Below are positions 1,177-34,917 of a stretch of 64,000 bases of DNA, piece by piece; the stretch's first letter is position 1, and each line of letters starts with the position of its first letter. The stretch comes from a virus. Taxonomy: Duplodnaviria > Caudoviricetes. A model generated the notes under the pieces. That model did no database searches. It was given only the letters and a program-made list of their open reading frames with translations, and was not told where the DNA came from. Location: positions 96,001 to 160,000 of IMG/VR virus record IMGVR_UViG_3300031993_000006; one strand, written 5' to 3'. Made by a program: the position numbers and the translations under genes.

Positions 1177-1206
1177 AGGGGCGCGTACTAGTTACGCGCC
1201 CTTTTT
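1177..1206 (+). terminator. intrinsic terminator after dut
   Basis: GGGCGCGTA-ctagt-TACGCGCCC stem followed by a T tract. Confidence 0.8.
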
Positions 1207-1212
1207 GATATG

Positions 1213-1312
1213 GTGAACTACGCACCGCCTAGAGGCAATGAGCTTCGCGTTAGTCCCGAATGGATGCCCGCGCCTTTAACCCCGATTTCCCCGAGGCGAG
1301 TACCTTGCGATA
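1213..1312 (-). ncRNA. stand-alone TnpB omegaRNA-like scaffold
   Basis: Similar to the 3' end of tnpB (17813-17905). Upstream on the minus strand is TTGACA-17nt-TAAACT, which overlaps ATAAACT at 1320-1326. Confidence 0.65.
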
Positions 1313-1398
1313 CACTAATAGTTTATAAATTTTTACCCAATGTGTCAAGGGGCTTTCATATCACCGCCTAAAGATGGTGAGTTTTCCGCCTATACTCT
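1213..1398 (-). mobile_element. non-autonomous IS200/IS605-type miniature element (LE hairpin, promoter, omegaRNA-like scaffold, RE), no protein
   Basis: On the minus strand it ends in GTGCGTAGTTCAC, identical to the tnpB element end at 17813. It shares the scaffold CTCGCC..AAGGCGCGGGC..CGCGAAGC. A hairpin at ~1361-1381 resembles the one at 19039-19059, and both lie 17-18 nt from TTTAT. Confidence 0.75.
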
Positions 1399-1405
1399 AT
1401 AAACT
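1399..1405 (+). promoter_or_regulatory. putative late promoter ATAAACT
   Basis: Recurrent motif before structural genes; 7 nt before ATG 1413. Confidence 0.75.
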
Positions 1406-17812: not shown

Positions 17813-19077
17813 GTGAACTACGCACAGCATGAAGGCTGCGCGCTTCGCGATAGCCCCGTAGGGGCGCCCGCGCCTTGGACCGCCGTTCCGGCGGCGAGAA
17901 TTCTTTTACCTTCGGCAAGAATGTTGATGGCGGCGTTGAAGTCCCTGTCGTGGGAAGTGCCGCATTGCGGGCACTTCCACTCCCGGACATTCAAGTCTTT
18001 AACAACTTCATTCCTGAAGCCGCAGTAGTGGCAGATTTGCGAGGAAGGGAACCATCGTCCGACACAGACGATGGTCCTTCCATACCATTCAGCCTTGTAT
18101 TTCAGCATATTCAGGAATATTCCCCATCCGGTGTCGTGCTCGGACTTGGCAAGGTCGCCTTCGGCGACCTGCCTTACATCCAGGTCTTCGACTGCAATCG
18201 TTTGGTTCTCGCGAATGAGTCGGGTTGATAGCTTGTGGAGGAAATCCTTGCGTTGGCTAGCAATGTGCTCGTGAAGGCGGGCGATGCGCTTGCGCAGCGC
18301 CTCGCGACGGGCAGACTTGCTCTTTTTCTTTGAAAACGCTTTCTGGAGGACCGCTAGGCGGTACTCGGCAAGTTTCATATAGCGCGGGTTGGCGACGGCC
18401 TCGCCGTCGCTCGTCACGCAGAAGTCCTTGAATCCGAGGTCGATACCTATGGCATAATCGGATTTTGGGAGCGCCTTCGGCGCTTCCTCCTCGACCAGTA
18501 TCGAGGCGTAGAACTTTCCGGAACGCGACCGGCTTACGGTCGCGTGCTTGATATCCTTCTCGCTCCAGTCGATATCCTTATAGTTCTTGAACTTGACGAA
18601 GCCGATTTTCGGCAGGCGCAGCCTGCCGTTCTCGATTCGGATATTTTCCTTTGTTCGATAAGTGGTATAGGAATCGCGGTCGTGATGTTTGGCTTTAAAC
18701 TTCGGAAGGCCGACACCATCGGCCTTCCTCTCGAAGAAGTTCTTGAACGCAGCGTTCAGGTTGAGGACTTCGCCCGTTAGGGCGTTGCTATCGACTTCCT
18801 TCAAGAACGGAAACTTGGCATAGTAGTCGGTAGGTTTCGTCCGGCACTGTGTGCCGGTAGCCTCATACGACTTCAAACGGGCGTCCAGCATGCAGTTGTA
18901 CACCTTGCGGCAGCAGCCGAAGGTCTTGCCTAGCAAGACCGCCTGCTGCCGGCTTGGATATAGCCGAATGTTGTATGCCCGTTGAAACATGTCTTAAATA
19001 TATACTATTCTAGCTGTTTATGGGAGTGGTTTTTTATCTAACTGCCTTAAGGCGATGAGAATTCTTGTGGCTATTAT
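17813..19077 (-). mobile_element. IS200/IS605-family element carrying only tnpB (IS1341-like)
   Basis: RE ends GCGTAGTTCAC at 17813; LE hairpin at 19039-19059; preceded on the minus strand by TTTAT (19082-19078); no tnpA. Confidence 0.85.
17818..18990 (-). CDS. tnpB: RNA-guided endonuclease TnpB
   Basis: N-terminal RAYNIRLYP, RuvC residues GIDLG / AVEDL / DRDFNAA intact, zinc finger CHYCG..CPQCG. Confidence 0.95.
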
Positions 19078-19084
19078 ATAAACT
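19078..19084 (+). promoter_or_regulatory. putative late promoter ATAAACT (its reverse complement supplies the putative TAM TTTAT)
   Basis: Same motif as before other structural genes; abuts the IS left end. Confidence 0.75.
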
Positions 19085-32671: not shown

Positions 32672-32719
32672 AAGGCGGACCCTTTCCTGCTTTGTGAACT
32701 ACGCGGGCTGGCCGGGATA

Positions 32720-32753: not shown

Positions 32754-32825
32754 TCGTATTTGGTATAGTTTACAAAATGCGACGATATATAAACTATGGG
32801 GTATGTTTAACCGGGGATAACTGAT

Positions 32826-34716: not shown

Positions 34717-34734
34717 ATCTAGTTTAAGGCGTAG

Positions 34735-34825
34735 ATGACCTGCTGTATAATGTCAGCTTCGCGTTAATCCTAGTGGGACGCTCGCGCCTTTAACCCCCGT
34801 GTCGAGAGGCGAGTACATTACTGTA
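34735..34825 (-). ncRNA. second stand-alone omegaRNA-like scaffold with an altered 3' end
   Basis: The minus strand reads GTACTCGCCTC..GGGGTTAAAGGCGCG..TAACGCGAAGCT, shared with 1213-1312; GCTATATTA promoter-like motif at ~34832-34840. Confidence 0.6.
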
Positions 34826-34917
34826 CATATATAATATAGCATCATTCGAATTGACGGTCAACGGTATGAATTAGTTTAATATATGCAAGATAAACTGTGA
34901 AAGACGGAGACTCCCGC

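Follow-up and report, generated by a model that had tools for sequence, protein, structure and literature searches.

A protein-less mini IS200/IS605 element with a predicted omegaRNA in a jumbo phage genome, and its empty alleles in sister phages

The DNA analyzed here, referred to as the window, is a 64,000-nt stretch corresponding to bases 96001–160000 of a 259,974-bp IMG/VR virus record, a jumbo phage with completeness rated at 91%. Near the start of the window, a dUTPase gene (710–1153) is followed by a GC-rich hairpin with a 7-bp stem and a 9-nt loop (1179–1201), which was read from the sequence and also occurs in relatives lacking the element described below. This hairpin is the predicted dUTPase terminator on the plus strand, and on the minus strand it would likely act as a weaker stop for an omegaRNA. 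Between the terminator and the promoter of the next gene, which encodes a 1098-aa protein, lies a 186-bp mini IS200/IS605 element without tnpB (1213–1398, minus strand), here called copy A, with both a left and a right end. Only chance ORFs, of 53 and 32 aa, fall within the 186 nt, and there is no protein gene between the ends.

A megablast search with the first 8 kb of the window found no relatives among INPHARED phages. The dUTPase gene has 99%-identical homologues on two contigs from Logan assemblies and one from a JGI metagenome, and a fourth contig carries a dUTPase fragment that is 98% identical (samples with relatives: SRR29040552, SRR14574016, JGI 3300041865, and JGI 3300041892); nucleotide identity to these relatives is ~93%, as measured by blastn on one relative only. 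In all four near-identical relatives, the dUTPase gene is followed by a 74-nt intergenic region without the element and then by the gene for the 1098-aa protein. Compared with this empty allele, the window has exactly 186 extra nucleotides, 1213–1398, between GATATG and ATAAAC (plus strand), with no target-site duplication and no repeated flank. The empty site was found through its protein neighbors, the dUTPase homologues; exact scans for the copy A empty site and for the guide of a sister element (copy E) in IMG/VR, and for the copy A guide in JGI metagenomes, gave 0 matches. The comparison also bears on annotation of the neighboring gene. The ATG at 1374, which opens its longest ORF, falls inside the left-end hairpin of the element, whereas the gene start in relatives corresponds to the ATG at 1413 of the window, and the sole more distant homologue aligns from the same residue. 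Gene callers thus overextend the 1098-aa neighbor by 13 codons into a transposon left end.

The empty alleles also define the target. On the minus strand, they read TTTAT followed directly by CATATCAAAAAGG, which identifies TTTAT as the target-adjacent motif (TAM), TTCAC as the last pentamer of the right end, and the predicted guide as correct. The TAM lies at 1399–1403 (minus strand), directly 5′ of the left end and inside the reverse complement of the promoter motif ATAAACT, and TTTAT likewise directly precedes the left end in the full-length copies and in two sister minis described below (copy C and the L323 mini). The predicted 16-nt guide, CATATCAAAAAGGGCG (1197–1212, minus strand), is flanking DNA that begins where, judged by the empty sites, the right end stops; its last 5 nt overlap the terminator hairpin. 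A first-pass annotation of this DNA, made from its letters alone, had started the guide right after TTCAC (position 1212, CATATC) and proposed TTTAT as its TAM, and the empty alleles of the relatives bear out both. Beside TTTAT, guide and empty allele agree over 22 nt in L314 and over 13–14 nt in the three remaining relatives (L312, L313, and L317). ISDra2 TnpB needs no more than a scaffold of 116 nt and pairing of the guide over about 12 bp (PMC10097598). Elsewhere in the 260-kb phage genome, we found no second guide target with fewer than 2 mismatches and no near match preceded by TTTAT.

A full-length, tnpB-only insertion sequence in the same window (17813–19077, minus strand), recognized by Pfam domains and a match to ISDra2, encodes a 390-aa TnpB (17818–18990, minus strand) with the Pfam domains OrfB_IS605, Cas12f1-like_TNB, and HTH_OrfB_IS605, and has its own omegaRNA scaffold at 17813–17922 (minus strand). 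Against ISDra2 TnpB structures, the protein gave an E-value of 1.5e-83, with the catalytic motifs DLG, VEDL, and HDRD aligned and the DED residues kept. By these measures, it is an intact, close homologue of ISDra2 TnpB, and the full-length insertion sequence is the likely source of TnpB protein for the minis. The genome holds three further tnpB copies at 93–94% identity, one complete, one cut by a contig end, and one split in two, along with several distant TnpBs; the nearest matches in bacterial bins were two short ruminal MAG contigs at 75% amino acid identity. The full-length element is absent, again with no target duplication, from a 130-kb relative contig (L321, ~93% nucleotide identity), where the empty site reads TTTAT and then the flank, with 2 mismatches to the guide of the full-length copy at positions 8–9. 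The tnpB element is thus an insertion polymorphism too.

Alignment to the full-length copies accounts for the anatomy of copy A. Its 5′ half, from AGTTTAT onward, aligns with the full-length left ends through the hairpin to the promoter, the leader past the promoter is still similar to tnpB codons 1–4, and this leader joins the scaffold roughly where tnpB-linked copies read CCGAAGG. We read this as the loss of tnpB by one internal deletion, from ~codon 4 to ~codon 365, that fused the left end to the right end. The deletion junction is identical, letter for letter, in copies A and E and in the L323 mini, which indicates that the deletion occurred once and that the mini then moved as a mini. Subterminal hairpins are present at both ends of copy A, though weakened, and there are no terminal inverted repeats. 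The left-end hairpin (1360–1381, minus strand), degraded by comparison with its aligned counterpart, an intact 9-bp hairpin, in the full-length copies and the L323 mini, has one A-C mismatch and one T-G pair in its stem; the right-end stem has two C-to-T changes that become G-U pairs in RNA and make it weaker as a DNA hairpin. This pattern, with G-U pairs kept in the RNA and a true mismatch left elsewhere, would fit selection on the RNA and not on the DNA hairpin, although it is a single case. By its anatomy, the stretch 1213–1398 (minus strand) derives by internal deletion from the tnpB-only element of this phage, which belongs to the IS200/IS605 family and has IS1341-type architecture, and it is left without a protein gene.

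No match to Y1_Tnp, the Y1/HUH transposase TnpA, was found in the 260-kb phage record, which is 91% complete. Availability of a Y1 TnpA is a feature of autonomy and not of membership as a non-autonomous element. At ~195.4–197.0 kb of the genome, a serine recombinase (a 208-aa frame with a Resolvase domain) adjoins one of the distant TnpBs; this pair is a separate IS607-like element of the same phage. An IS607-type origin of the mini family itself was ruled out, as the ends carry matching subterminal hairpins, the TAM is 5′, and there is no duplication. Another distant TnpB lies just ahead of the window (genome 95129–95903), with 33% identity, a 402-aa open frame, and a weak match to the scaffold model. 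It ends 29 nt before the NIF3-like gene that starts the window, and the gap between the helicase and NIF3 genes in relatives is 22 nt only; this TnpB is probably another recent insertion.

The RNA predicted from copy A is an omegaRNA scaffold of ~101 nt (1213–1313, minus strand) with four stems and a TTCAC end, recognized by a covariance-model match and by covariation. Its start near 1313 is placed from promoter position only. A repeat search gave a 94-nt gap-free match at 70% identity between 1213–1306 and 17813–17906 on the minus strand, the latter covering the last tnpB codons and the stop. The motifs that the first-pass annotation had listed as common to this region (1190–1350) and the tnpB 3′ end, namely, CTCGCC, AAGGCGCGGGC, CGCGAAGC, and the terminal GTGCGTAGTTCAC, are all present in both. 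Over the scaffold as a whole, copy A is ~69% identical to the scaffolds of the resident TnpB copies, and it keeps all of the conserved single-stranded motifs.

That annotation had also noted hairpins that differ in sequence but keep their pairing and had suggested a covariance model from three copies as a check. We built the model from nine scaffolds, three of them from minis and six linked to tnpB, of which three are resident and three come from other IMG/VR records. Their alignment yielded a four-stem consensus, and copy A scored 90.6 bits (E about 1e-18). Across eleven sequences, 94% of cells were paired and 17 of 29 pairs were changed on both sides; none of 500 shuffles reached the observed pairing and slid controls were 27–43% paired, though the alignment was fitted to the model, which somewhat favors structure. 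Both the preserved pairing and the model match thus stood up. Six genome sites scored fully against the model, three of them at tnpB 3′ ends and three gene-less: copy A (90.6 bits), copy E (genome 251308–251412, 99.7 bits), and copy C (34722–34832, 71.9 bits). At gathering score, Rfam gave 0 matches anywhere in the window, the real tnpB 3′ end included, and is uninformative for omegaRNA.

Among the scaffolds, the minis form a sequence cluster of their own, and their right-end hairpin is closer to that of a TnpB lineage of 75% identity from the ruminal MAG contigs (L161 and L162) than to those of the resident copies. ISDra2 uses the residues from −5U to −3C in a pseudoknot (PMC10097598). At about the position of the ISDra2 pseudoknot partner, the minis have a GCAA loop where tnpB-linked scaffolds have GAA, and the pseudoknot contact may be changed in them. 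In the stem-2 loop (~1286–1290), GAA could pair with UUC at −5 to −3 of the 3′ tail (1215–1217), and copy C has GAC in its stem-2 loop and GUC at its 3′ end. A pseudoknot between stem-2 loop and 3′ tail is possible from this one covarying case, identified by eye only. In wider searches, matches to a loose motif scan of IMG/VR were mostly chance, and a stricter scan of IMG/VR returned only the three tnpB-linked scaffolds in other records, none of them syntenic with the copy A locus. A 17-mer of the mini-specific junction gave 71 matches in IMG/VR and the metagenomes, with 0 scaffolds among them, and the RNA model run on 6–22 kb pieces of the relative contigs found no scaffold except the L323 mini.

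A promoter scan and the left-end alignment both point to a promoter, TTGACA-17-TAAACT, at 1320–1348 on the minus strand. The first-pass annotation had reported this promoter overlapping a sequence motif, and we concur: it agrees with the consensus at 10 of 12 positions, and TATAAACT contains its −10 box. In the full-length left end, TTTAAT and TATATT stand where copy A has TTGACA and TAAACT, and in the full-length copies the aligned promoter sits 6 nt ahead of the tnpB ATG. What had appeared to be the mini's own promoter is by this alignment the left-end tnpB promoter of the parent insertion sequence. The proposal of a stand-alone omegaRNA gene holds insofar as copy A is a tnpB-less unit with a promoter; the unit is, however, the right end of a 186-bp mini-transposon. 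TATAAACT has 31 copies in the genome against ~7 expected, an about fourfold excess, and is nearly always intergenic and upstream of genes, probably as a phage promoter element. It often comes directly after terminators, with examples in the window at 1398–1405, 19077–19084, and 32788–32795. The TAM TTTAT is part of the TATAAACT reverse complement, and elements consequently land beside promoters; the first left-end base of the element rebuilds the T of TATAAACT.

Sister minis show how the family has moved and decayed. Copy C (34735–34889, minus strand) is a decayed mini of 155 nt, inserted at a target site that is empty in L322, a relative of 96% identity. It keeps a promoter, TTGACC-17-TATATT, and stems 1–3, while both hairpins and the terminal motif are gone. 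A more distant relative (L323, 78% identical) carries at the same target a canonical 186-nt mini (L323:3091–3276) with intact, matching left- and right-end hairpins whose arms, CACCGCC and GGCGGTG, are common to both ends. One target that is empty in L322, canonical in L323, and decayed in this phage implies that the target was hit more than once or that the element spread by homing. Copy E and the L323 mini are 85–91% identical to copy A and share its leader; the phage gene beside the L323 mini is only 76% identical between the two phages, which points to horizontal movement of the minis rather than shared descent. Copy E lies outside the window, in a region spanning genome positions 251308–251460 (L010:1501–1650). 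It has no left-end hairpin and keeps a promoter, the scaffold, a 20-nt flank, and a strong, clean terminator, and so looks immobile yet expression-ready. Three copies of the scaffold had been proposed at the outset. The one at 34.7 kb is real but decayed (copy C), whereas a 13-mer at 32694–32706 ("copy D") is not an element: the match to the right-end terminus extends over only 11–13 nt (13-mer with 2 mismatches), and the hairpin and promoter around it are backbone sequence common to relatives.

The anatomy of copy A, its insertion, the TAM, the match of guide to target, the conserved RNA fold, and the presence of an intact TnpB in the same genome are established. From these we infer a mini-transposon whose omegaRNA, loaded in trans by the TnpB of the full-length copies, cuts empty alleles and so serves retention or homing, a reading to which we give a probability of roughly 70%. 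The left-end promoter would fire at ~1313, giving a transcript of the ~101-nt scaffold plus the flank-copied guide that extends into the hairpin it shares with the dUTPase gene. TnpB from the full-length copies would load this RNA in trans, and the complex would cut any DNA bearing TTTAT plus the guide, which is the element-free allele. Such an allele could arise by excision or be imported by a co-infecting sister phage, and recombinational repair off the filled copy would restore or spread the element. Given that the phage has no TnpA, the empty alleles that matter most may be carried by co-infecting sister phages, and excision, hence restorative homing, would need a host transposase. Trans use of the mini omegaRNA is plausible with a resident TnpB that is intact, keeps the DED motifs, and is close to that of ISDra2. 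The scaffold identity of ~69% and a right-end hairpin like that of the other lineage count against the mechanism, and compatibility with the resident TnpB is presumed. Also against it are the altered loop at the likely pseudoknot partner and the position of the guide, whose 3′ end falls within the stable dUTPase terminator hairpin, which could hinder target pairing.

A more ambitious version of this reading, which we regard as rather unlikely, is that TnpB and the promoter-equipped protein-less cassettes (A, E, and the decayed C) together form an RNA-guided homing or interference system between co-infecting phages. If so, every cassette would label the locus it occupies, sister genomes without that cassette would be cut by TnpB, and the cassette with its flanking genes would spread without any transposase; two of the three cassettes (E and C) are without the hairpins needed for transposition. 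It would then be a natural viral example of transposon non-restorative homing and would take a selfish omegaRNA one step toward a phage-owned multi-guide weapon. Non-restorative homing by transposons is treated as theoretical for phages in a review (PMC13565253).

Other explanations assign the RNA no role, a different role, or a different partner. Copy A could be an inert relic, a real mini-IS insertion whose RNA is not made or not used by the resident TnpB and that persists as a neutral scar. Its degraded left-end hairpin, the scaffold identity of only ~69% to resident TnpB scaffolds, the presumed pseudoknot-partner loop unlike that of tnpB-linked copies, and a sister, copy C, plainly decayed at both ends would all suit a scar. 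A scar would not be expected to have a promoter nearer to consensus than that of the full-length insertion sequence (−35 box TTGACA versus TTTAAT), a promoter kept in three minis, stems preserved by compensatory and G-U changes, and every conserved single-stranded motif retained, and we hold this explanation to be unlikely, with a probability of about one-fifth. Less probable again is that the scaffold belongs with another TnpB since gone from the genome, so that the RNA is perhaps made but partnerless here. The right-end hairpin of the minis does match the 75%-identical TnpB lineage better, and the minis cluster apart in sequence; even so, every motif invariant across both lineages is present in copy A, the left ends that come nearest to that of the mini belong to two resident full-length copies, and the genome supplies four tnpB copies of this family.

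The least probable explanation, which we consider quite improbable, is a domesticated trans-guide gene, kept by the phage as a member of a dispersed, array-free set of guides against chosen targets such as competing phages. Strong promoters on several cassettes, the match of the guide to natural sister-phage genomes, and the state of copy E, which has lost the left-end hairpin while keeping promoter, scaffold, 20-nt flank, and clean terminator, could be read in this way. The guide is nonetheless the exact insertion flank, as it would be for every IS200/IS605 element; none of the guides matches the genome a second time; the copy E guide has no match in IMG/VR; and copy A retains both transposon ends. 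The elements are, moreover, altogether missing in close relatives, which makes them recent arrivals and not conserved phage genes. The first-pass annotation had suggested a distributed, array-free multi-guide system, which is not supported: the guide of copy A matches only the empty site of the element itself, as present in relatives.

What copy A adds is the pairing of alleles. Both the filled and the empty alleles of a guide-RNA-only mini-transposon occur in wild phages that are ~93% identical, and the guide matches the empty allele beside a TAM. TnpB-driven homing from one co-infecting virus to another would require just this situation, and it is directly testable, with a TnpB, a 101-nt scaffold, the TAM, and a natural target all defined.

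Several known systems resemble this one. The TAM of ISDra2 is TTGAT, whereas that of the phage elements is TTTAT, and the pseudoknot partner in the minis is uncertain. Otherwise, ISDra2 TnpB (PDB 8BF8, 8EXA, and 8H1J; PMC10097598) and the resident TnpB are close homologues, the latter with the DED motifs kept and a TAM that is likewise a T-rich pentamer. By description, the omegaRNAs are alike in having four stems, a length of ~100–116 nt, and a UUCAC end. With the free-standing homing endonucleases of T-even phages and with transposon non-restorative homing (PMC13565253), copy A shares a predicted outcome: the element-free allele of a co-infecting relative would be cut, and repair would copy the element along with its flanks. 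Unlike recognition by the T-even endonucleases, recognition here would be RNA guided, with the guide on a separate, protein-less element.

The closest counterparts are elements that carry an omegaRNA and no effector. PATE-like minimal IS200/IS605 elements of Geobacillus stearothermophilus encode omegaRNAs whose use would depend on TnpB supplied in trans (Meers et al. 2023, PMC10055086). Like copy A, they are protein-less, have ends like those of resident tnpB elements, carry the omegaRNA at the right end, and have a guide to their own empty site beside a TAM. Copy A differs in residing in a jumbo phage genome without a Y1 transposase, in a deletion that puts the tnpB promoter directly on the scaffold, and in having empty alleles that match its guide in wild sister phages. 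Standalone, effector-less omegaRNA loci are reported to act in trans (Altae-Tran et al. 2021, summarized in PMC10691335). They too are mobilized without effector or transposase, with effector-bearing loci in the same genome; those are in bacterial genomes, whereas copy A is in a phage, with its junction, promoter, TAM, and empty site resolved by sequence comparison. Copy A showed every structural feature that we checked of PATE-like elements and of standalone omegaRNAs, as far as sequence can tell. Effector-less omegaRNAs and PATE-like minis have already been described, and copy A fits the same selfish-element logic without being a new kind of system.
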